From Candidatus Obscuribacteraceae bacterium (GTDB taxonomy: Bacteria; Cyanobacteriota; Vampirovibrionia; Obscuribacterales; Obscuribacteraceae), in the NCBI GenBank assembly GCA_044226015.1, contig JBGAHS010000003.1, forward strand, positions 640,001 through 704,000: 64,000 bases of DNA. The letters run 5' to 3'. The notes under the pieces were generated by a model, which saw only the letters and a program-made list of their open reading frames with translations, was not told the origin of the DNA and made no database searches. Of the stretch, positions 1 through 60,431 are shown in pieces; positions within the stretch are counted from its first letter, which is position 1, and the number at the start of each line of letters is the position of its first letter. The position numbers and the translations under genes were made by a program.

Positions 1-5
1 GCTTC

Positions 6-599
6 TTGTTCACTTCAGGAAAAGCAGGCTGGGTAGGACTTACAGCAATTTCAGCAAGTGACAGCGCGCGTCCGTCAGATTCTTTTGGGCAGCAACTCGC
101 TGACACCACTCTTGGTGCAGCACGAGGACTTGCTACTAGAGCATTGTTCATGAAGATCAACGAGCAGAACTGGAACCCGGTCATGAAGGGCTGGACCTAT
201 GGCTTAGGAGATAGATTTATTGATAACAGCCTCAACAGTCGCTATTATCTAAACGGCGACGGCAAGGTAGACCTTGCCTCATTTAGAGATGGGGCTTTGA
301 CTGCACTTCATCACACAATTGGTGCACAAGCACTAGCGACTGATGCAGCGACTCTCAGTGTATCTGCATTACTCATTCCAATCGATAAGTACATGGGCGG
401 TGCTTACTTCAAGAATGTATTGGCACAGAAACTAACAATGGCTGGAGTTTCAGGATTGAGCGAAGGCTCACTAAAAGAGCTGAACCGTCAGCAGGACAGA
501 ATGAAAGGAATCGATTGGCAGAAAGTGGCTCAGAAAGGCGGAGAAAGAGCAATTTTAGACACACTTTCCGCCGTGCCAGGTTCGCATCTCTGGTACTAA
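6..599 (+). CDS. Hypothetical protein, probably 5'-truncated by the window edge
   Basis: Open frame from the window start to TAA at 599; no motif recognised. Confidence 0.6.
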   Translation: MFTSGKAGWVGLTAISASDSARPSDSFGQQLADTTLGAARGLATRALFMKINEQNWNPVMKGWTYGLGDRFIDNSLNSRYYLNGDGKVDLASFRDGALTALHHTIGAQALATDAATLSVSALLIPIDKYMGGAYFKNVLAQKLTMAGVSGLSEGSLKELNRQQDRMKGIDWQKVAQKGGERAILDTLSAVPGSHLWY

Positions 600-1015
600 A
601 AGAACTAGAAAGAACAACAGAGAAAGATCTGGGCCAATCCAAGGTTATCGCCTAAGCTACGCTGCATTCGCAAAGCAGCGCGAGGTGGACTGCTTTTTAA
701 CAGGGATTTATGTTACGGCAGAAGAATGCGCGTGGCTCACACTCTAGCTTGCGCAGCAAGATAATAAAAAAATTGTGCTTAACAAACAAAGATTGAGCTG
801 ACACTACTCAAACCAGATTTTGAGCCATGTTCGTTACTAGGCTCTGCTCGTCTCAAAGTTTCGTCCCAATATCCCCTGCAACTCCCAGCAAATAGAAAAA
901 GCAACGCATCCATTACTTATCTCGACAGCCAAATCTGGCAGTCCAGGAAAGATGCCTGCGTTTGCCGGACGAACTTTGAGACGAACCTTCATCAACCTAA
1001 AGCAAAGGAAATAAC

Positions 1016-2137
1016 ATGAGCAGCATTCGACTGATCGCCCCCACCGCTGGCTTCGGCGTCCAACTCCTTCAGAAAGAACTGGCGGCGAACGCCGGCAAGA
1101 ACGTCCTCGTCTCGCCGCTGAGCGTCAGCGTCGCGATGGCGATGGCCATGAACGGCGCGCGTGGGAAGACTCGCAAGCTGATCGCCTCTGGACTGCAACT
1201 GCCCGACTTTGGCAGCCTCGCGGCGACCAACCTTTCCTATGCCAATCTGCTGGCCGAACTCAACGACAAGGAAGCTCTCGGCGTCGACCTCGCCGTGGCC
1301 AACGCCATCTGGGCGAAGCAGGACTTCCCCTTCAACCCGCAGTTCATCGGCTCGGTGGCCGCGCAATTCAATGCGCAGATCAGCAACGCCGACTTCAGCG
1401 ACCCCGCCACGCTGGTGGCACTCAACCAGTGGGCGTCGGACAACACGAACAAGCGCATCACGAAGATTCTCGACGAAATCTCGCCCGAGAAAATTCTCTT
1501 CCTTCTGAATGCGGTCTACTTCAAGGGAGAATGGACGGTCAAGTTCGACAAGACGCTCACGAAGGACGAGGACTTCTTCGCGCCGTCGGGCACTCGCAAG
1601 CATCCGCTCATGCAGCGCCAGGGCAACATGGTCTGGACGCGCGGCAAGAACTACCAGGCGGTGAAGCTGCCGTTCGGCAAGAACGAGCGCACGAGCCTCT
1701 GCGTCTTCCTGCCGGCGCCTGGTGTCAGCGTCGAGTCGGTCGTCGCCGGCCTCAGCGCGAGCGAAATTCGCAATCTGGTCACGCTGGAGGAAGGCACCGA
1801 CGGCACGCTCTTCCTGCCCCGCTTCAAGCTCGACTATGACGTCTGCCTGAATGATTCGCTTCAGGCTCTCGGCATGGGCGATGCTTTCAACTCGGGCAGC
1901 GCCGACTTCTCGGCCATGGCGAGCGGTCCGATCTTCATCAGCGAGGTCAAGCACAAGACCTTCGCCAGCTTCGACGAGGAAGGCGGTGAAGCGGCAGCTG
2001 TGACTTCGGTCGGCGTCGGCATCGAGTGCGTTCCGGTCAGCTTCAACATGCGCTGCGACCGCCCCTTCGCGATCGCGCTGCAGGACAAGCAGACCGGAGC
2101 CCTGCTCTTCAGCGGCGTCGTCAACGACCCGCAGTAA
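1016..2137 (+). CDS. Serpin family serine protease inhibitor
   Basis: NVLVSPLS, LLNAVYFKGEW, LPRFKL, hinge DEEGGEAAAVT and C-terminal DRPF...LLFSG motifs; AAGGA RBS. Confidence 0.97.
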   Translation: MSSIRLIAPTAGFGVQLLQKELAANAGKNVLVSPLSVSVAMAMAMNGARGKTRKLIASGLQLPDFGSLAATNLSYANLLAELNDKEALGVDLAVANAIWAKQDFPFNPQFIGSVAAQFNAQISNADFSDPATLVALNQWASDNTNKRITKILDEISPEKILFLLNAVYFKGEWTVKFDKTLTKDEDFFAPSGTRKHPLMQRQGNMVWTRGKNYQAVKLPFGKNERTSLCVFLPAPGVSVESVVAGLSASEIRNLVTLEEGTDGTLFLPRFKLDYDVCLNDSLQALGMGDAFNSGSADFSAMASGPIFISEVKHKTFASFDEEGGEAAAVTSVGVGIECVPVSFNMRCDRPFAIALQDKQTGALLFSGVVNDPQ

Positions 2138-2181
2138 GGGCACAACTTGGGCACCGTAAAACTAAAGGCTGAGTAAGCCTG

Positions 2182-2222
2182 GCGCTGGTTGAGGATTCGT
2201 CCTCTTCCAGCGCTTTTTTTCT
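2182..2222 (+). terminator. Intrinsic terminator after the serpin
   Basis: GCGCTGG-TT-GAGGA-ttcg-TCCTC-TT-CCAGCGC stem followed by a T run. Confidence 0.75.
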
Positions 2223-2341
2223 TCTCTGAGCATTCTATTATATCCTATCGTATTAATCCAGAGAATTGTAAAGGCGAAAGAAGAAACAGGGAGGCAAGAT
2301 CCTGAGATCTTGCCTTCCCTTTTGTTCTTAGAGACGAGCTG

Positions 2342-2683
2342 CTAGAGCAGATCGCGCTCAACGCAAAGCTTCACCGCGGCTTCGTGCTCGGCAGCCTGCT
2401 GGCATGCTTCGCGAATCCAGTGGTGTGCACGCGCATAGATTTCGAGCCGATGCTTCTCGCTGCCCAGAGCTTCCTCGGTACGCGAAAGCATGATGCGCAG
2501 CGAATCGTTGCCGGAGTATTCCATGCGGAAACCCGACTCGTCGTTGAGCTGCTCGATGAGACTGGAGGCGAGTTCCGTATAGCGGCCTTCGACGCGAATT
2601 GCGAAGGGCAGCTTATAGACCCGTTCCAGGGGCGAGTGCTGGCTGAAGCTCAGCTCGGCACACTTATCCGTGTGAGCGTTCAT
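2342..2683 (-). CDS. Hypothetical protein (113 aa)
   Basis: AAAGGA RBS before ATG; no motif recognised. Confidence 0.6.
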   Translation of the reverse strand: MNAHTDKCAELSFSQHSPLERVYKLPFAIRVEGRYTELASSLIEQLNDESGFRMEYSGNDSLRIMLSRTEEALGSEKHRLEIYARAHHWIREACQQAAEHEAAVKLCVERDLL

Positions 2684-2775
2684 GTTGTATCCTTTCTTAC
2701 TTTTTCAACTGTGCTAGAGAAACACAGGTGGAAAAGGTGAGTCTCCTCACCTTTTCCGACTTGTGTCTCGAATCG

Positions 2776-2952
2776 CTAGCGAAGCAGGTATCCCATCAGG
2801 AAGAAGAGCCCAGTGATAACAGTTCCGCCAATCAGACCGGGAATTGCCGGCCAGCCAGTAGCCAGCAGAACAAAGCAGCTGAGCACCCAGAGGATGATGA
2901 GCCAGCCCAGGTTGATGGGGAGATCGTTTTTGTAGCCTTCCGGTTTGTTCAT
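2776..2952 (-). CDS. Small 2-TM membrane protein (58 aa, absent from the ORF track)
   Basis: Read by hand: MNKPEGYKNDLPINLGWLIILWVLSCFVLLATGWPAIPGLIGGTVITGLFFLMGYLLR*. Confidence 0.6.
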   Translation of the reverse strand: MNKPEGYKNDLPINLGWLIILWVLSCFVLLATGWPAIPGLIGGTVITGLFFLMGYLLR

Positions 2953-3026
2953 GAAAAATCCATTTGAATGTTGAAGTGAAGTTGAACGAGTGTTAGTAAC
3001 AAATAGAACCGATGAAAAAATTGACT

Positions 3027-3065
3027 AAAGAAAGAAGCGACTCCCCGAGCCGAAACTCGGGGAGT
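3027..3065 (-). terminator. Intrinsic terminator at the end of the lipid cluster
   Basis: ACTCCCCGAG...CTCGGGGAGT stem just after the 3071 stop, with a U-rich tail on the minus strand. Confidence 0.6.
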
Positions 3066-3070
3066 GCTCA

Positions 3071-4138
3071 TCAATAGCGTTTGGCGAGTTCCAGCAGCTC
3101 AGCAATCTTGAGCCGAACCTGATCGATAGCTTCGAGTTCATCGCTCGGCAAAGAGCCAACAGCGATGGGCTCACCCACGACGACAACGCCACCATAGATG
3201 GTGATTTGCGAATGCCGGTAGGCAGCAAGCGCAGCCTCGCGTTTGGCGACCACGTCAGCACGCTCGGACGGCGAAAGCGCGTCGAGGTCGAGCTTGAACA
3301 GTGGGTCCCAGTGACGCGGGTTGCGCATACCGAGGAACAACGAACGTGTCCGGTTGAAGAGCTTCTGACTCCAGTGCGCTTCTTTCGGGTCGCGCCTGTA
3401 GTGAATCGCCAGAGGAAGAATCGAGACGGGTTCGCCCGACTCTTGTGCAGCATCTCGTGCCACACGAATGGCTCCTGCGCGAAACTCTTCCTTCTTGAGC
3501 TGATTGTCCGGCATCAACGCCCCCTGCGGTGCAATCGCAAACGCGATGTCATCGCCAGGAAGCGAGAGCGTAAAGCAGCTCGCAAAGAAAGAAGCCAGCG
3601 CCAGCAGCTCGCTACCTATGCAGAACAGGAAGGTCGCGAGCCCGAAGCCGATGATGCCGAGCCAGGCGGCAACGGCGGTGCGCATGCGCAAACCGCACTT
3701 GCGCATGGCAAGCACTTTCACGGACGCGCTCTGACCAGCAGCCCGTTCGGCTTTGGTCTTGAACGTAACCGTGACGATTCCTATCCAAGCCGCCAGCACA
3801 CCGAAGAAACCAGTGAATTGAGCAGCGTCGCCCAGGGCACGGAAGTGGCGCCCGGTGGCCGACCGCACCATGGCGAAGTCGGCAGGAATCTGATGATTGG
3901 CGACAACGACGACGCGTCCCTTGCGAGGCGCATTTTCCTTGCCGACAACCTTGATGGGTCCGATGGTGAGGAAGCCGACCAGCCGAGCCGCCCCGCAATA
4001 CATGAGCTTTGCAAAGGCGCTCGTATCGGGAACGACGTGTCCGCTAGTCTGGAGCTTCCCGGCGTGATACCGCCAGTAGAAGTACCATACCAGCACCGCC
4101 AGAAGCAGTGCGGCAGGCACACAGAGAAGTGCGCTCAT
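3071..4138 (-). CDS. PlsC-like lysophospholipid acyltransferase with an internal TM hairpin
   Basis: NHQIPAD (HX4D), APQG (FPEG-like), FRAGA, ILPLAI, VVVGEPI; paralog of 14212..15270. Confidence 0.85.
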   Translation of the reverse strand: MSALLCVPAALLLAVLVWYFYWRYHAGKLQTSGHVVPDTSAFAKLMYCGAARLVGFLTIGPIKVVGKENAPRKGRVVVVANHQIPADFAMVRSATGRHFRALGDAAQFTGFFGVLAAWIGIVTVTFKTKAERAAGQSASVKVLAMRKCGLRMRTAVAAWLGIIGFGLATFLFCIGSELLALASFFASCFTLSLPGDDIAFAIAPQGALMPDNQLKKEEFRAGAIRVARDAAQESGEPVSILPLAIHYRRDPKEAHWSQKLFNRTRSLFLGMRNPRHWDPLFKLDLDALSPSERADVVAKREAALAAYRHSQITIYGGVVVVGEPIAVGSLPSDELEAIDQVRLKIAELLELAKRY

Positions 4139-4359
4139 TCTGTTTCTTCTTTCTCAATAAAATTTCTCCAGTTGAGAGAAGCGAGGACGGCATCGTGATG
4201 CCGTCCTGCATATTGCTGCCAGCTTTCGCCAGCGCGCACTCAAAGGCTAGCCCGTGTTAGAGGCCAGCAACAGGAATGCGCTCATTGCGCTGAGTCTTGA
4301 AACACTGCCCGAAAGGCGGAGAAGCTCCCCGCCTTTCCTCTTCGTGCAGTATTGATGCT

Positions 4360-4689
4360 TCAGCTCAGCCGGGCGAGGAGCGCGAAGAGGATCCGCTCGA
4401 TGGCCTTGATGCCGCCCACGATGAAGCCCCAGGCGACACCGACGAAGGGCACGCTGGCGACCACGCAGATGAGGCCGAAGAGATTGCCGCCGGCGACAAC
4501 CGCAGCAGTCGAGATGAAGCCCATCACGACCGCGGCAGCGACCACGCCCAGCGCGGTGAAGAAGAAGAAAGCCTCGGCGCTCCGGAACTTCCAGCGCTCG
4601 GCCAGGAAGTAGGCGACACGTCCGCTGGTGACAGCGGCGATGGCGACGGAGGCGACGATGAGGGCGAGACCGAAGATGTCGATATGCAT
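4360..4689 (-). CDS. Small 3-TM membrane protein, array family C
   Basis: Hydrophobic; C-terminus ERILFALLARLS shared with the other family C copies. Confidence 0.8.
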   Translation of the reverse strand: MHIDIFGLALIVASVAIAAVTSGRVAYFLAERWKFRSAEAFFFFTALGVVAAAVVMGFISTAAVVAGGNLFGLICVVASVPFVGVAWGFIVGGIKAIERILFALLARLS

Positions 4690-4729
4690 TGTCTGTATCC
4701 TTTCTTGTCGTATGGTCTAGCGCTGTCGA

Positions 4730-5206
4730 TCAGCGCTTGTCGCCGTTCCAGAGTTCGACCAGGAAATGCCCGAGCCCGTAGCAGGCGACGAAACCAGCAG
4801 CCGCGACGGTGCCGTTCGTCCAGTTCACGAGCGGGTTTCCGGTCGCCGTGAAGATCTGCATGCAGGCGGTGGCGAAGTAGCCCATCACGGTGAGAACCGC
4901 GACACCGGTGAAGATCTCGCCGGTGGACAGGCGCATCGAAGCCTTCTGCCGCATGTTCTTCAGCAGACGCAGGAGGAAGAAGAAGCTGCCGATGATGGCG
5001 GCGAAGAGCGTGCCGCCGAGGACGACCGGCATGATGGCCATGAAGATGCCGCCGATGTAGTTAAGGACGGCGAAGACGCCGACCACGGACGACGCACCGA
5101 CCAGCGCCAGGAAGGCGTTGGTCTTGTCGAGACCGACACGAATCACCTCGGGCTCCTTGCCGGGCTCGGGGTTGACGGCCGGGATGCTGTTGAGATCATT
5201 GCTCAT
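4730..5206 (-). CDS. 4-TM membrane protein, array family A (subtype A2)
   Basis: GGTLFAAIIGSFF, VMGYFATACMQ, GNPL..W motifs shared with 6501..6965. Confidence 0.85.
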   Translation of the reverse strand: MSNDLNSIPAVNPEPGKEPEVIRVGLDKTNAFLALVGASSVVGVFAVLNYIGGIFMAIMPVVLGGTLFAAIIGSFFFLLRLLKNMRQKASMRLSTGEIFTGVAVLTVMGYFATACMQIFTATGNPLVNWTNGTVAAAGFVACYGLGHFLVELWNGDKR

Positions 5207-5247
5207 TTAGAACCTCGTTCTGTTCGAGTATGGGGGGGGAGAGCTGC

Positions 5248-5568
5248 TCAGTCGAACTTGCGGATCAGCTGCGAAAGCACTCGCTCGAGCGCCAGGTTGC
5301 CGCAGATGACGAAGATCCAGCTGATTCCGATGAGCGGGATGCTTCCGAGCACCGAGACGATGCCGCCGATGATGCCCAGCTTGTCGATGGCAGCACCGGA
5401 GACGAAGAACATGATGATGGCGCCAAGGCAGCCGGAGACCAGGTAAGGGAAGGGATGCGAGCCCCCCCAGCGCAGATCGGCCAGGCGAATGTAGATCTGC
5501 CCGCTGCTGACGAAGCCGAGGAACATGGAGGAGATGAAGAGAAGTCCGAAGTATGCTTGCATATTCAT
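5248..5568 (-). CDS. Small 3-TM membrane protein, array family C
   Basis: Start moved to MNMQAY after an AGGAG RBS; C-terminus ERVLSQLIRKFD. Confidence 0.8.
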   Translation of the reverse strand: MNMQAYFGLLFISSMFLGFVSSGQIYIRLADLRWGGSHPFPYLVSGCLGAIIMFFVSGAAIDKLGIIGGIVSVLGSIPLIGISWIFVICGNLALERVLSQLIRKFD

Positions 5569-5587
5569 CACGAGTCTCCTTCTGTGT

Positions 5588-6055
5588 TCAGCGGCCGGAC
5601 TTGCTCTTGTCGCCGCTCTCATTGAAGAGCTGCTTGGCAAACTTGCCGCCAGCGAAGAGCATGCCGAAGAGAGCAGCCGAACCGACACCGTAGGTCCAGA
5701 GGCTGGACGGGTCGGCACCGGGCTGGAAAGTAGCGACACAGGCGGCGGCGAAGTAGCCGAGCACGCCGATGACAGCCAGGGCACGGTAACAGTCCGTGAT
5801 GGCGACCGACTTCTGCGCAGAGCGGCGAATGCGCTTGAGCATGAAGACGATGCTGATGAAGACGCTCATCAGAGCAGCGAAGAGCGTCACGCCGGCGACG
5901 TAGGGGAAGGCGCTGGTGGCGACGAAGCCGACCAGCTTGAAGAGGCTGTAGATGCTCAGGGCGATCGCAGCCAGCAGAGCGCCGGCGCCGAGGCTGAAGA
6001 GACGACCCTTGTCGCCATCGACCTGCTCGACCGGATTGGTGTTCTCATTGCTCAT
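5588..6055 (-). CDS. 4-TM membrane protein, array family A (subtype A1)
   Basis: Start MSNENTN after a GAGGT RBS; PYVAG.TLF, GYFAAACVATFQP.ADPS.LW shared with 7666..8196. Confidence 0.85.
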   Translation of the reverse strand: MSNENTNPVEQVDGDKGRLFSLGAGALLAAIALSIYSLFKLVGFVATSAFPYVAGVTLFAALMSVFISIVFMLKRIRRSAQKSVAITDCYRALAVIGVLGYFAAACVATFQPGADPSSLWTYGVGSAALFGMLFAGGKFAKQLFNESGDKSKSGR

Positions 6056-6141
6056 TGTGCTTACCTCTTTTCGAGTATGGGTTGCAGAATCAGGACCCGG
6101 GAGCAGAGTCTGTTCCCGGGACAGTTTCAGACCGCTGCGGC

Positions 6142-6471
6142 TCAGGAGAGCCGGGTCATCAGCCCGTTGAGAATACGGTTGATGCCCATGGTCATGCCGA
6201 TGGGGAAGGCCCAGATGAAGCCCGCCGCCGGAATCGAAGCAGCCATGACGACGAGCCCGCCGATGTAGCCGAAGTGAGCCAGGGCCGGCACGCAGATGTA
6301 GCCCATGATGGAAGCGCAGAGCACGGCGCCACCGACACAGAAGACGAAGCCGGTGAACGTGTTCGGCCAGTCGATGCCCATCTTCTTGCAGACGAAGTCG
6401 CCGATGCGCAGTCCGGTGACGCCAGCCAGAGCGACGGTGATCACGAGGATGCAGAGAGCATAGGAGCTCAT
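6142..6471 (-). CDS. Small 3-TM membrane protein, array family C
   Basis: Start MSSYAL after an AAGGA RBS; C-terminus NRILNGLMTRLS. Confidence 0.8.
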   Translation of the reverse strand: MSSYALCILVITVALAGVTGLRIGDFVCKKMGIDWPNTFTGFVFCVGGAVLCASIMGYICVPALAHFGYIGGLVVMAASIPAAGFIWAFPIGMTMGINRILNGLMTRLS

Positions 6472-6500
6472 GTGGTGTTTCCTTTTCTTCGAGATAAGGT

Positions 6501-6965
6501 TCAGGACTTGCTGCTGTTGCTGTCGTTCCAGAGCCCGGCGACGAAGCGCCCGAGCCCGAAGACAGTAGCGAAGCCGGCGCAGGCGATCGAGCCCGTGCAC
6601 CAAAGCGAGAGCGGGTTGCCACCGCTGCCGGTGAAGAGCTGCATGCAGGCCGTGGCGAAGTAGCCCATGACGGTGAAGACCGCCAGAGCCGTGAAGCCCT
6701 CCCAGAAGGAGAGACGCAGGCTGCTGCGCACGCGCATCAGCTTGAGCATCTTCATCAGGTAGAAGAAGCTGCCGACGATGGCAGCGAAGAGCGTCCCGCC
6801 GAGCAGGAAAGGCATCGCGCCAGCGAAGACGAGGCTCGCCTTCTGCAGGAAGTAGAAGCCCGTGCCAGCGCCAGCGGCACCGGCGGCGAAGAGCGCGATA
6901 TTGCTGAGCGTGACACCGCTGAGGTCGATGTTGATGTCGACCGGGTTCTTGGTCAGATTGCTCAT
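6501..6965 (-). CDS. 4-TM membrane protein, array family A (subtype A2)
   Basis: GGTLFAAIVGSFF, VMGYFATACMQ; GAGGA RBS. Confidence 0.85.
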   Translation of the reverse strand: MSNLTKNPVDINIDLSGVTLSNIALFAAGAAGAGTGFYFLQKASLVFAGAMPFLLGGTLFAAIVGSFFYLMKMLKLMRVRSSLRLSFWEGFTALAVFTVMGYFATACMQLFTGSGGNPLSLWCTGSIACAGFATVFGLGRFVAGLWNDSNSSKS

Positions 6966-6994
6966 GTGTACTTATCCTCTTTCTTGTGGGTTGC

Positions 6995-7333
6995 TCAGGA
7001 GAGCTTCTTGAGCAGATTTCCCAGAATCCGCTCGAGAGCCTTGTTGCCGCCGACCACCACGATCCAGCTGAAGCCGACCACGGGAATCGCCGCGAAGCAG
7101 GTGATGATGCCGAAGGGAATTCCTCCCACGTCGAGCGCCGCCTGCTGCACGAAGTAGATGATCAGCCCGGCGACAGCGCCGCCGAACAAGGTGAAGACGT
7201 CACGACCGTCCCCACGGATGCCCCAGCGATTCGCAAAGTTGCGCGCGAAGATGCCGCTGGAGACGCCGGCATAGATGACCGCCAGCATGGTGAGGAAGGT
7301 GGAGAACTCGAAGGGAAGCATGCTGTAGTGCAT
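6995..7333 (-). CDS. Small 3-TM membrane protein, array family C
   Basis: IPVVGFSWIVVVGGNKALERILGNLLKKLS matches the end of 5248..5568. Confidence 0.8.
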   Translation of the reverse strand: MHYSMLPFEFSTFLTMLAVIYAGVSSGIFARNFANRWGIRGDGRDVFTLFGGAVAGLIIYFVQQAALDVGGIPFGIITCFAAIPVVGFSWIVVVGGNKALERILGNLLKKLS

Positions 7334-7358
7334 TTGTCAGTTCCTTCTGCTTGAGCTT

Positions 7359-7640
7359 TCAGCTCGGGATGTCGATGTTGCGGAGAGCCTTGAGAGTCTC
7401 CCAGATGTGGCTGGCACCGATGCCAGCGAACAGCATGTAGAGACCCCAGACGGCGACTTGCAGCCACCCGTTGTCGGGAAGCAGGAAGGGCGTGAGCATA
7501 GCCGCGCCCACCATCGTGATGAGCACGAAGGCGACGCGAGCTTGCATCTGGTGATGCACCAGCCAGAGCCAGACGCGGTAGGCGCCGACGCCGACGATTG
7601 CCAGCAGAATGATGCTGATGATACCGAGAACGGCAGACAT
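7359..7640 (-). CDS. Small 3-TM membrane protein (93 aa)
   Basis: Start MSAVLG after an AAGGA RBS; three hydrophobic segments. Confidence 0.75.
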   Translation of the reverse strand: MSAVLGIISIILLAIVGVGAYRVWLWLVHHQMQARVAFVLITMVGAAMLTPFLLPDNGWLQVAVWGLYMLFAGIGASHIWETLKALRNIDIPS

Positions 7641-7665
7641 TAGGATTTCCTTTCGTCGTTCGAGC

Positions 7666-8196
7666 TCAGTTGGTCTTCGACTTCTTGGCCGAGCCCTCAT
7701 TGAAGAGCTGGCCAGCCCACTTGCCGCCGCCGAAGAGCATGCCGAAGAGGGCCGCCGTGCCGACACCGTAGCTCCAGAGCGTGGACGGGTCGGAAGCGGG
7801 CTGGAAGGTGGCGACGCAGGCGGCGGCGAAGAAGCCGAGCACCGAAATCACCGCCATCGCCGTGTAGCAGTCCCAGATGGCGAAGGTCTTCTGCGCCGAG
7901 CGGCGGAACTTCTTCAGCATCGTCACGATGCTGAGGAAGACGGTCATCAGCGTGACGAAGAGCGCCGCGCCGGCGACGTAGGGCGCCGCCGAGCTGATGA
8001 TGCCGCTGACGAGAGCGACGAGGCTGTAGCCGCTGAGGATGACGGCGGCCACGACCGCTCCGAGACCGAGCGAGAACATGCCCCCCTTGTTGCCGCTCTC
8101 CGTGGTCGGAGTCGGCGTCTCGGGAGCCTTGGGCGCATCGGGAGTCGGGGAGGTCGGGGCGACCGTTTCTCCGGGATTCTGATTGATGTCCGTCAT
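7666..8196 (-). CDS. 4-TM membrane protein, array family A (subtype A1), Pro/Thr-rich N-terminus
   Basis: Start MTDINQ after an AAGGA RBS; clear paralog of 5588..6055. Confidence 0.85.
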   Translation of the reverse strand: MTDINQNPGETVAPTSPTPDAPKAPETPTPTTESGNKGGMFSLGLGAVVAAVILSGYSLVALVSGIISSAAPYVAGAALFVTLMTVFLSIVTMLKKFRRSAQKTFAIWDCYTAMAVISVLGFFAAACVATFQPASDPSTLWSYGVGTAALFGMLFGGGKWAGQLFNEGSAKKSKTN

Positions 8197-8316
8197 TGAC
8201 GAAATCCTTCGTTGCGTTGAGCGTACTTCAGACGCTCTGTTGAAGCTTGTGCGGAGCCCCGGATGGACTCCGCACGGTTTGCCAGTAGCACTTGCCACCG
8301 TTTACGCATTACAACG

Positions 8317-8970
8317 CTAGATGCGCTCCCAGTTCATCGTCGGCGGCGTGAGCACACCGAGCGAGAGTCCGAACTTGAGAGCGTCGTCGACCCGCATATC
8401 GGTCTCGACGACAGCGCTTGTGGGAACGACGACGACGACACCGCTTGTCGGGTTCGGCATCATCGGCACATAGATGATGTAGCGCTTCACATCACCTTCG
8501 TGCGCGGGCGGAATTTCGTTGGTCACGAAGCCCATGGTTTTGAGCCCCGGAGTCCAGTCGAGGAACACGACCTTACGGAAGCGTGATTCGCCCCCTTGCT
8601 CGCCGAATGAATCCACGACATTGCGCGCCGATGAATAGATGAGGCGCAGGACCGGCGTTTTGTGAAGAACGCTGTCCACGAAATTCAGACCGATTTGTCC
8701 ATGCCGGAACGCAGCGAGCGCGCCGACAAGGCTCAAAAGAAGCAACGCCATGATGAGACTGACGCCTGGAATATGTCCTTCAGCCAGCGGTCCTTTCAAC
8801 CAGCTAGCCGGCAAGACGCGACGCACAAACTCGTCAGCGAAACTGCCGAAGGCAGCGTCAACGAGATTGTATGCGAAGTTCAGGACAACGATGCTCAAAA
8901 TCAGTGGCGCCAGGAAGAGCGCACCGCGAATGATGGCGGCACGCAATTTCTCAGCAAGATTTGTAGTCAT
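8317..8970 (-). CDS. DUF502 family membrane protein
   Basis: IPGVSL, PVLRLIYSS, GFVT, YVPMMPNPTSG, ALKFGLSLG motifs. Confidence 0.9.
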   Translation of the reverse strand: MTTNLAEKLRAAIIRGALFLAPLILSIVVLNFAYNLVDAAFGSFADEFVRRVLPASWLKGPLAEGHIPGVSLIMALLLLSLVGALAAFRHGQIGLNFVDSVLHKTPVLRLIYSSARNVVDSFGEQGGESRFRKVVFLDWTPGLKTMGFVTNEIPPAHEGDVKRYIIYVPMMPNPTSGVVVVVPTSAVVETDMRVDDALKFGLSLGVLTPPTMNWERI

Positions 8971-9169
8971 AGCTCGTTCCTTTCGGAAGAACCGACAAGG
9001 GGGGCGAGCGAACTCGCCTCCCTTGCGTTCTGGCGGGCGCGGTTTGCGCCTGCCAGTCCAGCGTGATAGAAGAACAAGCTTGCGCTTATTCTATCGAAGT
9101 AATTGATCAGGCGTGACCGTCAGGTTGCGTAAACCTGTCAACCACCCATGATGCTGATGCTGCGTCAGC

Positions 9170-11002
9170 TTACTTCGACTCAGCGTAGACCGCGTCGATT
9201 TCAGCAGCGAAGCGCTTGATGAGCACCTTGCTGCGAATCTTCAGGGTCTCGGTGATGACGCCACTGTCGATGGTGGCAGCCAGCGGCATGATCTTGAACC
9301 GCTTCACCTGCTCCCAGTGCTCGAGCGACTTGTTGGCGCCAGCGATGGCTTCCGCCACAGCCGCCTTCACCGCATCGTGCTCGGCGTAGAACTTCGCCGC
9401 GTCGGCCCCCGCAGGAGCAGCGCCAGCCAGTTTCTTCGCCTCGTCCTGATTGACGAAGATGAGCGCGATCGGATACTTGCGACCGTGAGCAACCGGCACG
9501 CTGTAGTGAATGATCGGGAAGTGCTTGAGCGCACCCTCGAGCTTCTCACGCGAGACGTACTTGCCGCCGGAAGTCTTGTACATGCCGTCCTTGCGGCCCA
9601 GCACGTAGACGAAGCCGTCGTCGTCCATGCGTCCGAGGTCGCCGGTCTTGTACCAGCCATCCTCGGAAAACGCGTTGGCGGTCGCCTCGGGGAGGTTCCA
9701 GTAGCCTTTGAAGACCTGCCCACCGAAGAGCTGAATCTCGCCGGTACCGGGCTCGTCCTCGCTCGGGTCGTGCGCGATGCGAACCTTGCAGTCCGGCACC
9801 ACGTAGCCGACCGAGCCGACCTTGTTCTTGGGACCCTTGCCGGGCGCCCAGCTCGGACGATTGGTCACGATGCCGCCGACCGTCTCCGTCGCGCCGTAGC
9901 CCTCGAGAATCTCGATGCCCAGGCGATTGAAGAAGTGCAGCACATCCGCGTTGATCGGAGCGCCACCGGAGACAGCCATGCGCAGGCGCCCGCCGAGCTT
10001 GGCGCGCACCTTGTCGAAGACGATGCGGTCGAAGATCTTCCCGGCGGTCGTTCCCGGCTTGCTCGCCAGAGCCAGCTTGAAGAGCGGCTTCCAGACGAAG
10101 AGCGTGTTGAGCACCTTGCCGATGCCTTCCGCCGGGTTCTTGACGCCGTTGTAGATCTTCTCCCATACCGCCGGCACGCCAGCCAGAACCGTGGGACGGA
10201 AGCGCCCCATGTTCTTGGCCAGCTGGTCGATCGCCGAGAAGGCGACCGGCGTGCCGTTCCAGGTGCAGAGCCCCATGCCGTCGACGCGCTCGAGCACGTG
10301 CGAGAGCGGCAGATAGCTGAGCACGAGGTCCTTCTCGGTGATGCCGAGACCGACCTGCGACATCGAAGCCATCTTGGCCGCGATGTTGCCGTGGGTGATC
10401 ATGCAGCCCTTCGGCGCGCCCGACGAACCCGACGTATAAATGAACGTCCCCAGGTCATCCGGCGCCAGGTCGGCGAAGTAGGTGCCCGGCTTGCGCTGGG
10501 CGCGCATCGCAGACAGCTCGGCATCGACCGCGGGGTAGCGGGCGAGGGACGGCGCCGCCTTGGCGACCGCCTCGAAGATGCTGCCGCCGAGCTTCACGAG
10601 GTCTTCCAGCGACGTGAGCGCATCGATGAAACGATAGCCCTCGCCGACCGTGACCTTCTTGATCTGCTCGTCGTCGGCCGCGAAGCTGAGCTTCACGCCG
10701 GCGTCCTTGAGCACGTAGGCAGCCTGCTCGGCAGAGCTGTTCGGATAGATCGGAACGGTGACGGCGCCCAGGGACTGGATGGCATAGTCCGCCCAGACCC
10801 ACTCGGCCGAGTTCCAGCCGAGAATGGCGACACGGTCGCCCTTCTGAACGCCCTTCTTGCGGAGAAACGCCATGATCAGAGCGACCGCCGTTCCCGACTG
10901 GGACCAGCTGATCTGCTTGAGATCGGCGCCGTTGTCATAGACGATGGCGCAGGCATCGGGAGTGCTGAACGCACGAGCCCAGAACTTTTGAATCAGTGTC
11001 AT
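9170..11002 (-). CDS. fadD: Long-chain fatty acyl-CoA ligase (AMP-dependent synthetase)
   Basis: YTSGSSGAPKG, SYLPLSHVLER, EGYGATE, WYKTGDLG, GRKD; start MTLIQ after a GGAG RBS. Confidence 0.95.
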   Translation of the reverse strand: MTLIQKFWARAFSTPDACAIVYDNGADLKQISWSQSGTAVALIMAFLRKKGVQKGDRVAILGWNSAEWVWADYAIQSLGAVTVPIYPNSSAEQAAYVLKDAGVKLSFAADDEQIKKVTVGEGYRFIDALTSLEDLVKLGGSIFEAVAKAAPSLARYPAVDAELSAMRAQRKPGTYFADLAPDDLGTFIYTSGSSGAPKGCMITHGNIAAKMASMSQVGLGITEKDLVLSYLPLSHVLERVDGMGLCTWNGTPVAFSAIDQLAKNMGRFRPTVLAGVPAVWEKIYNGVKNPAEGIGKVLNTLFVWKPLFKLALASKPGTTAGKIFDRIVFDKVRAKLGGRLRMAVSGGAPINADVLHFFNRLGIEILEGYGATETVGGIVTNRPSWAPGKGPKNKVGSVGYVVPDCKVRIAHDPSEDEPGTGEIQLFGGQVFKGYWNLPEATANAFSEDGWYKTGDLGRMDDDGFVYVLGRKDGMYKTSGGKYVSREKLEGALKHFPIIHYSVPVAHGRKYPIALIFVNQDEAKKLAGAAPAGADAAKFYAEHDAVKAAVAEAIAGANKSLEHWEQVKRFKIMPLAATIDSGVITETLKIRSKVLIKRFAAEIDAVYAESK

Positions 11003-11130
11003 GGAGAGAACTCCTTCTCTTTCAGGTCGCCTCTGCGACCCGGGGCACTCATCTGGAGCGCCCATTTAGCTGATGAGAACTGACAGGGTGATTTCGCAAT
11101 CACCCTGTCTCGATTGCACTGAAGAGCGGC

Positions 11131-12093
11131 TCAGACAGCCGCTTTCTTCTCCTTCTTCGCCTTCTGGTATTCGACGAACTTCGCCACGCACTCGGCCGAA
11201 GCCGGCGTGTGGCAGAGGTTGGCGAAAGAGCAGGACTCTTCCACCATCGCCGCGTTCTTGTCGCCGCGCATCGCCGCCTTCATGACCTTGAGGGCCTCGA
11301 GCGGAGCCGGATACTTGCCGCGCGTCTGGACCTTGATGGCCAGGGCGGCGAGCGCCGAGATGCAGCTGACGCCGATGGCGGAGTCGCCGATCGCACGCGT
11401 GAACTTCTGCATCGCCGAGGGCTCACGAGTCGGAGGCGACTCGCCCAGAACGACGCCGACCGCGCGGCTGAAGAGCTTCGACTCCGGCACCAGCTCGTCG
11501 ACCAGCCCAGTCTGCAGCGCCTTGCGCGCCGACCAGGGCTTGAGCGGGTTGGTGATGAGCGGCACAGCAGCAGCGAAGCCCAGCATCAGCGGAGCGCGCA
11601 CCGTGCCGCCCCAACCGGGAAGCACGCCGAGCGCGACCTCGGGCAGACCGATGACCGTCGACTTGTTGTCGGTGGCCAGGCGGTACTTGCAGACCAGGGT
11701 CAGCTCGGTGCCGCCGCCGAGGCAGCGACCACGAATCGCGGCGACCGTCGGAAACGGCAGCGCCTCGATGCGCGCGAGCAGAGCCTTGCCCTGATTGCAG
11801 CCGTCGTAGGCGATTTCGGGCGGCATCGACTGCGCGTACTGAATCTCCTTGATGTCGGCGCCGGCGATGAAGCAGTCGTCCTTGGAAGAGCGGAAGACAG
11901 CGCCGACGAACTCGCCGGGCTTCTCGAGCACCTTCACGACATGGTCGAGCTCCTTCATCACCAAGCTGGACAGCAGGTTGACCTTGCTGACCTTGCTGTC
12001 GAAGGTGACGATGGCGACGCGGTTCGACAGAGTGCTGAGCTCGACGACGTTGCCACGGAAGAGAAGACGAGACTTGATGGGGTTGCGGGTCAT
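11131..12093 (-). CDS. Enoyl-CoA hydratase matching only the N-terminal domain of FadJ/FadB
   Basis: FIAGADI, CLGGGTE, GLPEV.LG.LPG.GGT, TRGKYPAP; no dehydrogenase domain follows. Confidence 0.9.
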   Translation of the reverse strand: MTRNPIKSRLLFRGNVVELSTLSNRVAIVTFDSKVSKVNLLSSLVMKELDHVVKVLEKPGEFVGAVFRSSKDDCFIAGADIKEIQYAQSMPPEIAYDGCNQGKALLARIEALPFPTVAAIRGRCLGGGTELTLVCKYRLATDNKSTVIGLPEVALGVLPGWGGTVRAPLMLGFAAAVPLITNPLKPWSARKALQTGLVDELVPESKLFSRAVGVVLGESPPTREPSAMQKFTRAIGDSAIGVSCISALAALAIKVQTRGKYPAPLEALKVMKAAMRGDKNAAMVEESCSFANLCHTPASAECVAKFVEYQKAKKEKKAAV

Positions 12094-12165
12094 GTAATCC
12101 TCATTTCATCAGGTTGAGGCGCCGCACCGTATTTGGTGCGGCGCCAGAGGGATAGAACGAAGGGT

Positions 12166-12981
12166 TCAGGCGCTCGGCTTGAGCGCGAGAACCTTCTGCC
12201 TGAGAATCTCGGTGGCTTCGCGAGGGTCGCTCGGAAGCTCCGTGTTGGCAATCGGCTCGCCGATCACGACTTTGACGCCGCGCCGATAGTAGAACGCACC
12301 GACGAGCGGCACGAGCCACTGCAGCGGGATGGGCAGCTTCAGAATCCACTTGCCCGGGTAGCGCCCGTAGTGCATGTAACCGGGCACGACGTGAACCGGT
12401 CGGCCCAGACGAGCGGACGCTTCCTGAACCATACGAACGGCGCCGGTCTTGAACTTGCCGACCGTTCCATCCATATTGGTCCAGGCCTCGGGGAAGATGA
12501 CCTCGATGTTGGCGCCGTCCTCGGCGGTGAGAACTTTCACCGACGCGTTGAAGGCGGCATGACCATTGTCGAGGTCGACAGAGAAGACGCCCCACTTGCT
12601 GAAGAGCAAGCCGAGCAGCCCGCCACCGACCTTCATCACGCCCTGCGCTGCCGGGTATCGAGCCTTGCGGTTGAGCACCACAGGAGCGATCGCCACGTCG
12701 AGCAGACTGCCGTGATTGAAGGCCAGCACGAAGGGAGCCGGCAAATCCGCCAGCTTCTCATGCCCGACTGCGTCGATCTTGCCGACGAAGCCATCGACCC
12801 AAGCCTTCGCGAAACGCACCATTCCACGGTGCGCCCGGTCAGACGGGGTCGGAGCCAAGTAGCCGCACTCGACGACTTGCTTGGCTCTCCTGAGAGCATC
12901 CTTCAAACGGGGAAGAAACCAGGCCAGTGCGGCAGCGAAAGCGCCGCAGGCCAGGAGCAGAACAATCAAGTTGATCGACAT
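12166..12981 (-). CDS. PlsC-like 1-acylglycerol-3-phosphate acyltransferase
   Basis: N-terminal TM, NHGSLLD, IFPEA, FKTGAVRM, VVIGEPI. Confidence 0.9.
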   Translation of the reverse strand: MSINLIVLLLACGAFAAALAWFLPRLKDALRRAKQVVECGYLAPTPSDRAHRGMVRFAKAWVDGFVGKIDAVGHEKLADLPAPFVLAFNHGSLLDVAIAPVVLNRKARYPAAQGVMKVGGGLLGLLFSKWGVFSVDLDNGHAAFNASVKVLTAEDGANIEVIFPEAWTNMDGTVGKFKTGAVRMVQEASARLGRPVHVVPGYMHYGRYPGKWILKLPIPLQWLVPLVGAFYYRRGVKVVIGEPIANTELPSDPREATEILRQKVLALKPSA

Positions 12982-13022
12982 GTCGATCTCCTTCTGGATC
13001 CAATTAGATGAGAACCACGGGC

Positions 13023-14114
13023 TCAGTAGAGCCCGTGATCAGCGAACACCCGCTCGGCACGCCGGGCGAGGTCTTGCTTCTCCTTTGCAGGAGCCGGAAT
13101 GTAGTCGCGCCAGTAGCCCAGCGCGTCGAACAGGCTCTGCACCTTCTCGAGCCTCTCGCCAGCCAGCAGCCCCTCCAGAGCCAGACGTGCCGTAGCCGCT
13201 TCGAAGCTGACCAGCATCGCCAGCCACTTCTCGTCGTCCGACAAGTTGAACTTCAGGGAGTGGACATGCTCGATGTGCGGGCGGAACTCGATGACGCCAG
13301 TGGTCTCCGGACCCCAATGGAAATCCGGGTGAACCTGCCAGAGCACGCGAGCCATCCTGTGCAGCCGACCAGAGACAGGGCTGAGCCTGTCTTCGCCGAC
13401 GCGGCAGGCGATGATCTTGCGCGGGTCCGAACCGAAATGACGAATCATCACGCCCACCGGGCAGAGACCGTCACGGCTCAGACCGCCATCGAAGAGCATC
13501 ATGCCCTTGTACTCGATGGCGGCGATGACACCGACGATGGTGGCACTGGACCGCACAGCCAGCTCGAGCGGAGCAGGATGAACGGACAGCTGCGTCTTGC
13601 GACCAAAGGTATCGCAGAGGAAGACGCCGTCCTTGTTGAAGACAACGGCAGAGCCGTCGCGCGTGGTCGCCATCGTCACGAACTTCTCCGGCCAGCTCTC
13701 GATGCCGCGCTTGCGGGCTTCGTTGAGCACGAACTTGCCGAGGTTGTTGGAACCCAGCAGTCCGGTCACATGCCAGTCGGCGTACTCCTTCGGGCCGGTA
13801 GGCTCGATGAGCGAGTCCATGCCGCGACGCAGCACGTTGCCGACCCCACGGCGAATGGCGTGAGCCATACCGTCCTGGAACGTGACGTACCTGGTGAAGT
13901 CGGTCTCCAGCGTGATATGCAGCGCCTCTTTCGCGCTGATACCGGTCGCGGTGACGGCACTGAAGATGCCACCGCCGCTGACGCCGAAGTTCTTCGTGAT
14001 CTTCAAGCCAGCCATGCCGCACGCGGCAAAGGCACCAGCTCCGGCGAGCACAGCTGTCGCACCGCCCGAGCTAATCGCGAGCTCATAGCCGCTGGCAACA
14101 TCCGTGTTAGTCAT
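13023..14114 (-). CDS. Patatin-like phospholipase
   Basis: LAISSGG oxyanion motif, GVSGG nucleophile elbow, AVRSS, FDGG; start MTNTD after a GAGGT RBS. Confidence 0.9.
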   Translation of the reverse strand: MTNTDVASGYELAISSGGATAVLAGAGAFAACGMAGLKITKNFGVSGGGIFSAVTATGISAKEALHITLETDFTRYVTFQDGMAHAIRRGVGNVLRRGMDSLIEPTGPKEYADWHVTGLLGSNNLGKFVLNEARKRGIESWPEKFVTMATTRDGSAVVFNKDGVFLCDTFGRKTQLSVHPAPLELAVRSSATIVGVIAAIEYKGMMLFDGGLSRDGLCPVGVMIRHFGSDPRKIIACRVGEDRLSPVSGRLHRMARVLWQVHPDFHWGPETTGVIEFRPHIEHVHSLKFNLSDDEKWLAMLVSFEAATARLALEGLLAGERLEKVQSLFDALGYWRDYIPAPAKEKQDLARRAERVFADHGLY

Positions 14115-14211
14115 AACGCACCTCTCTTTCCACAAGAGAAAGAGGGAACCCAGCGTGAGCCGGGGTCCCTCTAGTCGTGGGTGAATCAGGGTTGAAGTGA
14201 GTGAGAAGCGA

Positions 14212-15270
14212 TCAGTGCTGCTTCGCGGTCTCGTAGAGCTCCACGATGCGAGCGCGAACGATGGCGATGGCCTCGATCGGATCTTCCGGCAGGTCAGCGA
14301 TGGAGATGGGGTCGCCGACCACGACAACGCCACCGTAGTTGGTGACGTTGGACTTCTTGTGCGCCTTCATGATCTCCTTGCGCTTCGCCTCGGACTCGGC
14401 ACGCTCGTCCGCGGTCATGGCTTCCAGGTCCTTCTTGAACTCCGGATTCCAGGCCTTGGGGTTGCGGGTGCCGAGGAACATGGAACGCATGCCCTTGAGG
14501 TGGCGGTGCGTCCAGTCGGCGCCGTTCGGGTCGCGCTTGTAGTGAATCGCCATCGGAACGATGGTGACCGGCTCGCCAGCAGCCGAAGCCGCAGCCTTGC
14601 CAATGCGCACAGCACCCGGACGGAAGAGTTCCTTCATGTCCGGGTCATCCGGCAGAAGGGCGCCCTGCGGGAAGATGCCGAGGGCGGGGCCGCTGCCAGG
14701 CATGCCGGCAACGACCAGAGCGAGAACGACCGCACCGAGGGCATACCAGGGCATGCCGAAGTGCAGAGACGCGACGAAGCCGGCAGCCGAAGCGAGCCAC
14801 AGGGTCACAGCGACACCGAAGCTGATGCGCCAGTTCTTGGCGGCAACAGAACGAATGCAGCCTTGCTCAGCAGCCTGACCATCGGTCTTCTGCTTGAACG
14901 CAACCGAGATGACGCCGCCGCAAGCAGCGAGCACGCCGAAGAAGCCGCCCAGCTGGTCCGCAGCGGTGAGCATGCGGAAGTGGCGCCCCGAACCGCGACG
15001 AACCATCGCGAAGTCGCAGGGCAGTTGGTGGTTGGCGGCGAAGATCACTCGCCCGCCGCGCGGAAGCTTGTTCTTGCCGATCACCTTGACCTTGCCGACC
15101 GTGAGGAAGGTCAGCAGGTAGGCGAACGCAGCCATGCCGAACTCACCGAACCAGCTCGTCTGCGGCGGCACGTAGCCGCTCTGCGGGAAGCGGGCAGCGT
15201 GGCCCTTCCAGAACATGTACCAACCGGCAACGCCGAACAGCGCGCCGAGGATGCTGATGATGTAGATCAT
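14212..15270 (-). CDS. PlsC-like lysophospholipid acyltransferase with an internal TM hairpin
   Basis: ANHQLPCD, IFPQG, FRPGA, IVPMAI, VVVGDPI; start MIYII after a GGAG RBS. Confidence 0.88.
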   Translation of the reverse strand: MIYIISILGALFGVAGWYMFWKGHAARFPQSGYVPPQTSWFGEFGMAAFAYLLTFLTVGKVKVIGKNKLPRGGRVIFAANHQLPCDFAMVRRGSGRHFRMLTAADQLGGFFGVLAACGGVISVAFKQKTDGQAAEQGCIRSVAAKNWRISFGVAVTLWLASAAGFVASLHFGMPWYALGAVVLALVVAGMPGSGPALGIFPQGALLPDDPDMKELFRPGAVRIGKAAASAAGEPVTIVPMAIHYKRDPNGADWTHRHLKGMRSMFLGTRNPKAWNPEFKKDLEAMTADERAESEAKRKEIMKAHKKSNVTNYGGVVVVGDPISIADLPEDPIEAIAIVRARIVELYETAKQH

Positions 15271-15432
15271 CTTGTATCTCCGTAGAGTTTGAGAGTTAAA
15301 GCTGCACATGCAGTCTTCGAAATAGGGCTCAGCTGGAAGCTTTAGCCCCTCCGTGAAGAAAGCTCACCGGGTAGCCACTTCCTATATTTAGTGGCGAGCC
15401 AGAAAGCCCATTTGCCTTGCGGTAGAAACAGC

Positions 15433-15537
15433 TCAGGAGAGGACGTTCAGGTTTCCGAACATCTTCTTCATGAGTTCGTCCCAGGACTTGCGCGGATGCA
15501 CAATCCAGCGGACAGCTTTGCGGATGCGTTCTTTCAT
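15433..15537 (-). CDS. 34-aa basic amphipathic peptide (absent from the ORF track)
   Basis: MKERIRKAVRWIVHPRKSWDELMKKMFGNLNVLS*; AAAGGAG RBS; codon style matches the neighbours. Confidence 0.55.
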   Translation of the reverse strand: MKERIRKAVRWIVHPRKSWDELMKKMFGNLNVLS

Positions 15538-15610
15538 GCATCGCTCCTTTTTTCTTCTTTTAGAGGAAGAACGAGGGGAGAGCTTGCGCTCGCCCCTCGT
15601 CCGGAGAACC

Positions 15611-17584: not shown

Positions 17585-17734
17585 GTCATTAGTCCTTGTT
17601 GCGAGAACCGCGAGCAACCGAATGGCGCTGCTGAGTCCTCGTTGGTCAGACAGAATCGACCCAAAGAGTTGGAACTTCAGCTCCAACCTTGAGTACTCGC
17701 GTTTGTGATAGAGAAACGTCAAAGTCCGCCGAGC

Positions 17735-17896
17735 TTATCCCCTTTCGAGGAGAAACCAGACGAACCCGAGAACCGCCTCAGTCGTGTAGCAAGAGATGAG
17801 GAAACCCACCGGGTTAGCCACACGCTGCACACGACTTTCAAAGCAGTAGAGCACAACAGGTGCAAGCATGGCGATTGCCAGAAGAAAGACTGCCAT
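17735..17896 (-). CDS. Small 2-TM protein (53 aa) at the head of the lipid cluster
   Basis: MAVFLLAIAMLAPVVLYCFESRVQRVANPVGFLISCYTTEAVLGFVWFLLERG*; AAGGAG RBS. Confidence 0.55.
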   Translation of the reverse strand: MAVFLLAIAMLAPVVLYCFESRVQRVANPVGFLISCYTTEAVLGFVWFLLERG

Positions 17897-18494
17897 GTGC
17901 GAACTCCTTGAGTCGGTCAGTACGCTTACAATCCAGCCGGTCAGCCAGTTAGATGCCCGATCCGCAAACTAGCGGTGAAGAAATTATCGAGTTGCTGAAG
18001 CAGATGCGATTTGCAGTTGCTGTAGACCTGAAGGGAAAGAAGAACGTATTGACAACATCATTATGTGCCTGCCCCCTGGGGCGCTCCAAAGATGGGCGTG
18101 TAACACGGCTGTAACACGCAGAACACAAACTCTCGAAAGCCCCATTTTACGGTTTCGAAGTTCTTCACACTTGTTCACCATTCTCTGAAATACGAGTTCG
18201 ACTACGCAAATCCCGCAAACAGATCTTCGAAGTTCGGCTTGCGCAGCGTTACCACCTGCAGCAGAGGAAGTGCTTTCTGCATATATAGGCAGCAAAAAAA
18301 TGTGAATCCACGCAATCCACTTGCTCCAAAAAGTACTGCTGCCCCCAGTCCACTAACGCAGCTCCACAAGCCTGCTGCGATGCACTCGGCAAATCGCAGG
18401 CGCGGCAAATCGCTACGCAAGCTTAGTGAATTCTGCCGAAAGAAAGGACTGATATGCTGGATGAAGACCCCGCTTCGGTTATTAGACCACTCTA

Positions 18495-25612: not shown

Positions 25613-25746
25613 CTTCGTTAGAAGTGCGCAGGACCTCTCGATTGTCAGTTGTTTCTACAACGAGTGTGCGAGACAGCTCGTTCACACACTCCAACCTGTT
25701 CGCCCGTAAAACGGCTCAACTTCCTTTTATGCAGGAGGTCAATTCT

Positions 25747-27867: not shown

Positions 27868-27906
27868 GCCCCAGCCATTCACCTTTAGATTGAGAGGAAT
27901 TAAATC

Positions 27907-30090: not shown

Positions 30091-30336
30091 ACAGGAACTT
30101 CCTGCATAGGAGCAGGAACTCTGACTTGAATATTGGTATGAGGTATGGCGCGTGTCGCAACCTTATTCCCGTAAGCTTGCTCAGAGATATGGCTCAACGG
30201 GTGCAAGCACTCGAGGGAGCTGTGTGTGATAGACCCGGGGGGAGGGAATTGGTTTTGCCGATTCCCTCCCTCTCGTCTTTTCCTGTTCTCGCAGACATCA
30301 ATTTATATATGGCTCGAAAGAGCAGGAGGTTTTTCA

Positions 30337-59407: not shown

Positions 59408-59419
59408 ACGTATTCTCCT

Positions 59420-60419: not shown

Positions 60420-60431
60420 AGTCAAATTCTC

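Follow-up and report, generated by a model that had tools for sequence, protein, structure and literature searches.

Positions 4360-8196 of the window, the 64,000-nucleotide stretch of contig JBGAHS010000003.1 (Candidatus Obscuribacteraceae bacterium, a little-studied relative of the cyanobacteria that does not photosynthesise) analysed here, carry on the minus strand nine genes for small predicted membrane proteins, and we propose, at a probability of roughly 0.3, that these genes form an intact, likely movable cassette in which family C provides a holin-like, membrane-permeabilising subunit that is bound and restrained by the adjacent four-helix family A. In transcription order the array reads A1-x-C-A2-C-A1-C-A2-C (A1 and A2 being subtypes of A), as a first reading of the letters alone (the sequence-only reading) had described it, with all nine open reading frames (ORFs) present as given in Table 1, each preceded by a purine-rich, ribosome-binding-like stretch and separated by spacers of 19-86 nt. 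The array is chromosomal and not an assembly chimera, since an independent contig spans it: one 24.3-kb contig of run X2, a sequencing run of another study (2016), covers window positions 1-12295 at about 99.3% identity (83 differing letters, 20 gaps) and runs from a host-type gene across the whole array, and a second contig of equal depth covers positions 12313-20000.

BLASTP comparison within a database of the nine proteins matched all six pairs of A (E 1e-17 to 1e-59) and all six pairs of C (E 1e-6 to 1e-15; 31-43% identity), whereas no homology was found between A and C (hhalign probability 0.5%). Identities among the A proteins of the window amount to about 67-68% for A1/A1, about 50-57% for A2/A2 and 29-36% for A1/A2. 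The sequence-only reading had put A at about 155-176 amino acids (aa) with four transmembrane (TM) segments and C at about 110 aa with three; both descriptions stand, with lengths of 154-176 and 106-112 aa and with four and three hydrophobic segments in the hydropathy profiles, respectively. The A proteins share a basic loop between segments 2 and 3, a conserved acidic residue (Asp/Glu) before TM3 and a G-[YF]-x-A-x-A-C motif within TM3. The motifs described earlier for both families recur, except that G.TLF, thought to be common to all A proteins, occurs in only three of the four (A1a has GAALF). Neither family gave a significant match in Pfam, PHROGs, NCBIfam, PADLOC or PDB sequences, in keeping with the sequence-only reading, which had assigned them to no well-known family.

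Both families are rare. Among 107 genomes of the order Obscuribacterales (39 of them with completeness of 90% or more and contamination of no more than 5%), A is present in two and C in three, all from a single genus of Obscuribacteraceae. Searches of protein collections returned 19 matches to A, some of them this genome's own, and nine to C, and at 50% clustering A had 11 matches among 1.84 billion representatives, one of which, a long match in a repeat protein (E 3e-4 over 35 residues), was dropped as chance. The match scores of A and C drop abruptly from strong values to none, which marks both as small, isolated families. A scan of Joint Genome Institute (JGI) metagenomes for A confirmed none of 66 candidates, and no fused A-C form was found among these 11 matches or among 7996 longer candidates, the latter being weak evidence. 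Our literature search, whose coverage excluded most subscription journals, found no description of the A and C families or of high-GC islands in Obscuribacter. Judged by their sequences, families A and C are uncatalogued.

Wherever they are intact, the two families occur side by side. The genome that holds the window (G000) encodes exactly six A and six C proteins, all within two A-C arrays, the second of which, on contig C9, reads A1-C-A2-C; another genome (G002) encodes four of each in the identical nine-gene order, with x at the equivalent position. An intact A is followed by a C in 10 of 10 cases in these genomes, with x intervening twice, and every intact C has an A upstream. In a third genome (G007), a C-terminal stub of an A2-type gene (E 4e-4, small local search) lies directly before a C-terminal stub of a C gene (E 1.7e-14), which points to joint decay of A and C. 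The strict co-occurrence expected from the sequence-only reading is thus borne out by the ten intact pairs and this joint remnant. Four further A proteins, each from an 18,788-letter contig, represent the four A types of the window array, and an A1b-like protein and a C2-like one each come from a 1,427-letter contig; the shared figures suggest that additional arrays exist. We conclude that A and C probably act together in some way, and that these uncatalogued, always-paired families are a compact candidate, open to testing, for a new membrane module of the pore-regulator or immunity type. The x gene, 44% identical to its same-position counterpart in G002, is less tied to the array and has weak stand-alone homologs elsewhere; two such homologs in G000, at contig C1:1207530-1207940 and L054:19118-19480, are similar to each other, lie among unrelated neighbours and share the high G+C content at third codon positions (GC3) discussed below.

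It is highly improbable that the array consists of recently acquired, functionless duplicates drifting to loss. The narrow distribution of A (two of 107 genomes) and the eroded copy in G007 would fit such a history, but all 22 genes of the three arrays are intact and the nine-gene order has persisted between G000 and G002 at about 45-50% protein identity. Among the differences listed against run X2 (40 of 492 rows), moreover, at least six fall in the array: the five in A and C genes are all synonymous, and one in x is non-synonymous.

What the pair might do was approached through structure prediction. The AlphaFold2 model of C3, based on 15 sequences, is a three-helix bundle (3-34, 39-64, 66-105) with a predicted local distance difference test score (pLDDT) of 91.5 and a predicted template modelling score (pTM) of 0.76. 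Basic residues are found in loop 1 and in the amphipathic C-terminal helix of C (net +1 to +3 in 10 of 10), so that, by the positive-inside rule, the N-terminus is predicted to face out and the amphipathic, basic C-terminus in. A is predicted to have both termini inside and a basic cytoplasmic loop, although the model of A1b is only fair (pLDDT 77, pTM 0.49) and merges the first two segments into one helix. C thus displays the holin trait set of three membrane helices, predicted N-out/C-in topology and a basic C-terminus, and shares these traits and its size (106-115 aa) with holin superfamily III and class I holins (Phage_holin_3_1 PF05106, Phage_holin_3_3 PF16083, LydA-like). When the C model was compared with a viral fold library, named holins made up 10 of the 50 best matches, including four of the five with a TM-score above 0.5 (0.52-0.54, with E values of 0.23-0.97, below significance); the A model had no significant match in this library (best E 0.28). 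In the Atlas, the clusters closest to C are unnamed and mostly viral (0.87-0.88) and the closest named one is holin superfamily III (0.77-0.80), which is therefore the nearest named neighbour of C both by Atlas features and by Foldseek, each below significance.

On our proposal, C would insert into the membrane as a three-helix, holin-like subunit of pore type and permeabilise it, and the adjacent A, with its four predicted spans, would contact and restrain C. The outcome may be a depolarisation triggered by stress or infection, or the release of cytoplasmic hydrolases, and the several C variants could widen the range of triggers or partners.

A number of observations weigh against this proposal. 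All similarities to holins are non-significant (Foldseek E 0.14 or worse; Atlas values below 0.9, with recognition under threshold). The resemblance is weak and owes something to base rates, holins being frequent in any case among the small three-helix membrane proteins of a viral library. None of 15 C sequences matched the holin models in Pfam or PHROG at E 0.5, and profile comparison revealed no similarity of C to the P2 holin Y (hhalign 5%) or of A to P2 LysA (0.7%). The C-terminal tail of C is only mildly basic by the standard of holins. No relatives were found in IMG/VR or in phage or plasmid collections by pattern scans, which detect close relatives only. Among the neighbours of the three arrays, C has neither a linked endolysin nor a prophage context: an endolysin is absent beside both arrays of G000, and the amidase gene that lies 1.9 kb from the array of G002, with an intermediate GC3 of 0.57, is missing beside the other arrays. 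Finally, the similarity between A proteins is only weakly related to that between the C proteins that follow them over eight units (rho 0.14, p 0.19), so that C subtypes do not follow A subtypes. Over ten units the correlation is 0.30 (p 0.03), and without the two terminal C4 it is 0.85 (p 0.003); because it is weak overall and C paired with its downstream A scores equally to the upstream pairing, this comparison does not fix the cognate A-C pairs.

Among known systems, the P2 pair Y and LysA and the P1 pair LydA and LydB likewise combine a regulator with an adjacent small protein of pore type. P2 LysA, a protein of 141 aa, has four TM helices and an antiholin role. The P1 holin-antiholin genes lydAB are unlinked from the endolysin gene, which shows that such linkage is not obligatory, and LydB, unlike A, has no predicted TM domain (PMC9025707). 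Our array differs from the P2 pair in showing no profile similarity, and neither the P2 nor the P1 pair forms a fourfold alternating array. C departs from holin superfamily III in matching it significantly neither in sequence nor in fold, in lacking a linked endolysin and a prophage location, and in occurring as four diverged copies interleaved with another family. The design of the cassette resembles known paired membrane modules, but we assign it to none of their families.

The sequence-only reading had raised a lipid flippase or permease as one possible function, for which we found no supporting evidence; that A and C form a heteromeric transporter of small solutes or lipids, with paralogs tuned to different substrates, is unlikely. 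Small multidrug resistance (SMR) heterodimers, YdcZ and AzlCD are encoded by adjacent genes for small hydrophobic proteins that act as a pair, and the paired SMR and AzlCD-type systems are working analogues for such a transporter. The strict A-C pairing, the Gly/Ala/Ser-rich helices of both families (19-35%) and the conserved acid and TM3 motif of A would be in line with it, as would the weak scores of three of 15 C members against GtrA (PF04138). The best of these is under the cut-off (E 0.0086), however, the window's C4 reaches 14.3 bits against a cut-off of 26.1, and the C model has three helices compared with the four required for a GtrA-type flippase. In comparison with PDB representatives, no chain reached a Z of at least 8 and the best, at Z 7.8 over about 60 residues, was a common helical hairpin, so that no transporter fold stands out for C (absence from the list is not exclusion). 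Unlike SMR, YdcZ, AzlCD and GtrA proteins, A and C are mutually non-homologous, match no family above cut-off and have no opposite topology. Two homologous 4-TM subunits of opposite charge bias are the mark of paired SMR and YdcZ transporters; here such a bias is absent between partners as well as between subtypes, A1 and A2 sharing the same basic loop. Lastly, C diverges faster than would be expected of a substrate-binding subunit, and the lipid-operon context is not conserved.

That context deserves separate consideration, because the sequence-only reading had tied the array to the lipid operon in which it is embedded, a link that did not hold. The operon of the window comprises acyl-CoA dehydrogenase, acyltransferase, patatin, PlsC, enoyl-CoA hydratase, acyl-CoA ligase, DUF502 and a second acyltransferase, and the nine genes occupy exactly the gap between the last two. 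In contig C137 of G002 and contig C81 of the genome G003, DUF502 is followed by the second acyltransferase without an array (gaps of 11 and 72 bases), and the G002 array is instead a 3.8-kb high-GC3 block flanked by host-type genes. The array on contig C9 of G000 lies directly upstream of a gene for an M50 intramembrane protease, with a paralog of the lipid operon 3 kb beyond, and no neighbour is common to all three arrays. The association of array and operon is therefore incidental, and the presence of the cassette at unrelated sites in two genomes indicates that it is likely movable. The fatty-acid/phospholipid operon itself occurs in three diverged copies in G000 (about 40-50% identity; window 3071-17584, L001:137-6360 plus 18110-19987, and contig C1:1169018-1178595), and its acyltransferase family, in one long or two split forms, is found in seven of the 107 genomes, all of this genus.

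The history of the copies differs between the two families. In a FastTree phylogeny of A (midpoint-rooted, the root giving no order of events), A1 forms a clade (support 1.0) separate from the rest, and within each subtype a copy resembles its partner in its own genome more than it does the same-position copy of the other genome: A1 identity is 67% in G000 and 73% in G002 but 47-52% across genomes, and A2 identity is 75% in G002 and 50% in G000 against 44-50% across genomes. The DNA of A2a and A2b in G002 is 93-97% identical over three 60-base windows and 47-52% identical over the first 120 bases, a tract from which we infer that A copies have been homogenised within genomes by gene conversion. 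Identity between duplicated A pairs is 50-75%, compared with 25-43% between C pairs of the nine-gene arrays in G000 and G002. Since both arrays share the gene order and the single x, the simplest history starts from an ancestral cassette of nine genes whose A copies later underwent conversion; parallel duplication in the two genomes is the less simple course. Of the duplication from two genes to four and then eight envisaged by the sequence-only reading, the part concerning A stands, but C does not follow: the C copies lack the C1-C3/C2-C4 pattern of a clean doubling, C2 and C4 are not sisters, the A-C correlation is weak, and conversion among A copies has blurred the record. The ratio of non-synonymous to synonymous substitutions between paralogs was set aside, since GC3 near 0.85 constrains synonymous sites.

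The pattern of a constant A and a variable C suggests ongoing selection for new specificities. A doubtful but possible alternative is that the array is a bank of inner-membrane immunity or exclusion proteins, directed against pore-forming toxins or DNA entry of related mobile elements and having no pore of its own. Immunity proteins against pore-forming colicins, and orphan immunity arrays, consist of inner-membrane proteins with three or four TM helices, similar to C and A in size and helix count, that diversify in tandem on mobile DNA. A tandem, diversifying and patchily distributed cassette on foreign DNA, set in a pool of genes where membrane-stress proteins abound, would suit this role. 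Unlike colicin immunity arrays, however, A and C match no Pfam, NCBIfam or PADLOC model (the best PADLOC score, E 0.013 for one of nine array proteins against a SLATT model, is not near significance), no cognate toxin gene was recognised beside any of the three arrays, and proteins that confer immunity independently would not need the strict A-C alternation that is seen.

Table 1. Genes and flanking features of the nine-gene array, in window coordinates.
Feature	Position	Strand	Description
DUF502	8317..8970	-	flank outside cassette; adjoins second acyltransferase in relatives
A1a	7666..8196	-	family A subtype 1, 176 aa; Pro/Thr-rich N-tail; 4 hydrophobic segments
x	7359..7640	-	93 aa; 3 hydrophobic segments
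C1	6995..7333	-	family C, 112 aa
A2a	6501..6965	-	family A subtype 2, 154 aa
C2	6142..6471	-	family C, 109 aa; most divergent C of the array
Inverted repeat, G+C-rich	6097..6120	-	within the longest spacer (86 nt), at the array midpoint; read from the sequence; no entry in terminator list
A1b	5588..6055	-	family A subtype 1, 155 aa
C3	5248..5568	-	family C, 106 aa
A2b	4730..5206	-	family A subtype 2, 158 aa
C4	4360..4689	-	family C, 109 aa; final cassette gene
Inverted repeat	4311..4337	-	directly 3' of C4; read from the sequence; lacks a T-run, hence not called a terminator
Second PlsC-type acyltransferase	3071..4138	-	flank outside cassette; lipid-operon member

The codon usage of the array sets it apart from its host, with GC3 of 0.83-0.91 compared with about 0.45 for most host genes. 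Using gene predictions from a simple custom caller, we found that 176 of the 5421 genes of G000 have GC3 of at least 0.7 and that 170 of these lie in four regions: contig C6:398-853 kb (which includes the window), contig C1:1.14-1.28 Mb, contig C8:700-735 kb and contig C9:1-30 kb, the largest of which flanks dnaA at C6:816 kb. The cassette is part of this foreign-looking pool of about 176 genes. High expression was rejected as the cause of the high GC3, because ribosomal genes and groEL are host-like (0.37-0.55). Among 88 hand-picked pool proteins, the named members are mostly proteases, AAA+ ATPases, lipid enzymes, SPFH proteins and vWA proteins, often in tandem copies, and no capsid, terminase or replication gene was found. 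A search for a donor in IMG/VR returned nothing for A, two acyltransferase queries or PrkA, and phage and plasmid records returned nothing for A1b, both within the reach of the pattern scans described above. In the pool's island set TGA terminates 69 of 157 genes, compared with all nine array genes; read-through of these stops into a polyprotein was rejected, as none of the eight spacers is in frame and stop codons are mixed in the arrays of G002 and C9.

A further reading, also unlikely, is that A and C came from an unknown high-GC donor (a large element or another organism) as structural or membrane-remodelling proteins and were retained in a toolkit for membrane stress and proteolysis with PspA-like, SPFH, FtsH and HtpX genes. 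The codon usage that the array shares with the pool's proteases, AAA+ ATPases, lipid enzymes and SPFH proteins, and the M50 protease gene next to the C9 array, would agree with such an origin, but the M50 neighbour is missing at the other two arrays and the IMG/VR, phage and plasmid scans revealed no donor. Returning to C as a holin-like subunit with A as its regulator, a more far-reaching version, itself unlikely, would make the array an undescribed chromosomal pore-and-regulator system in which the A scaffold is kept uniform by conversion and interchangeable C subunits diversify to sense different triggers, carried as cargo of an unrecognised high-GC reservoir that keeps feeding about 170 genes for proteases, lipid catabolism and membrane stress into four chromosome regions of the genus, the largest flanking the replication origin. 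The weight of the finding is limited by the narrow distribution of the families and by the hypothetical nature of their function; the cassette nevertheless exposes a genus-wide pool of foreign-composition genes in Melainabacteria, and this pool may matter more than the array.

High-GC3 genes are interleaved with host genes, in a pattern that is similar in G002, G003 and G007, and they also include orphan membrane proteins. Within the window, positions 25729-33817 encode two PrkA-family ATPases in tandem together with DUF444 and SpoVR, all with codon usage of the island type; positions 46313-46636 and 48682-49011 hold paralogous Cys-rich island genes (107-109 aa), each followed by a small membrane-protein gene; and positions 58682-61899, downstream of a long EzrA-like gene, encode three coiled-coil proteins of 241 aa that are almost identical, carry an anchor at the N-terminus, have GC3 of 0.93-0.94 and are PspA-like by eye (the one scanned had no Pfam match). 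Elsewhere, L023:4314-13737 and L024:954-14286 contain an FtsH and two parallel clusters of the type vWA-TPR-vWA-MoxR-DUF58, after which S41 proteases are encoded; two small genes, similar in both places, come after each. Short N-termini are a feature of four thermolysin-family (M4) proteases of the island type (L019:182-2461, L019:11515-12603, C6:778706-779728 and C6:824005-825096), which resemble protealysin, and one of them is preceded by two paralogous orphans of 141-144 aa that recur at C6:578218. Paralogous membrane-protein genes at L019:18777-19262 (the end of contig C8) and L014:224-697 (the start of contig C9) have the same strand and composition, which suggests that C8 and C9 are connected within a single island.

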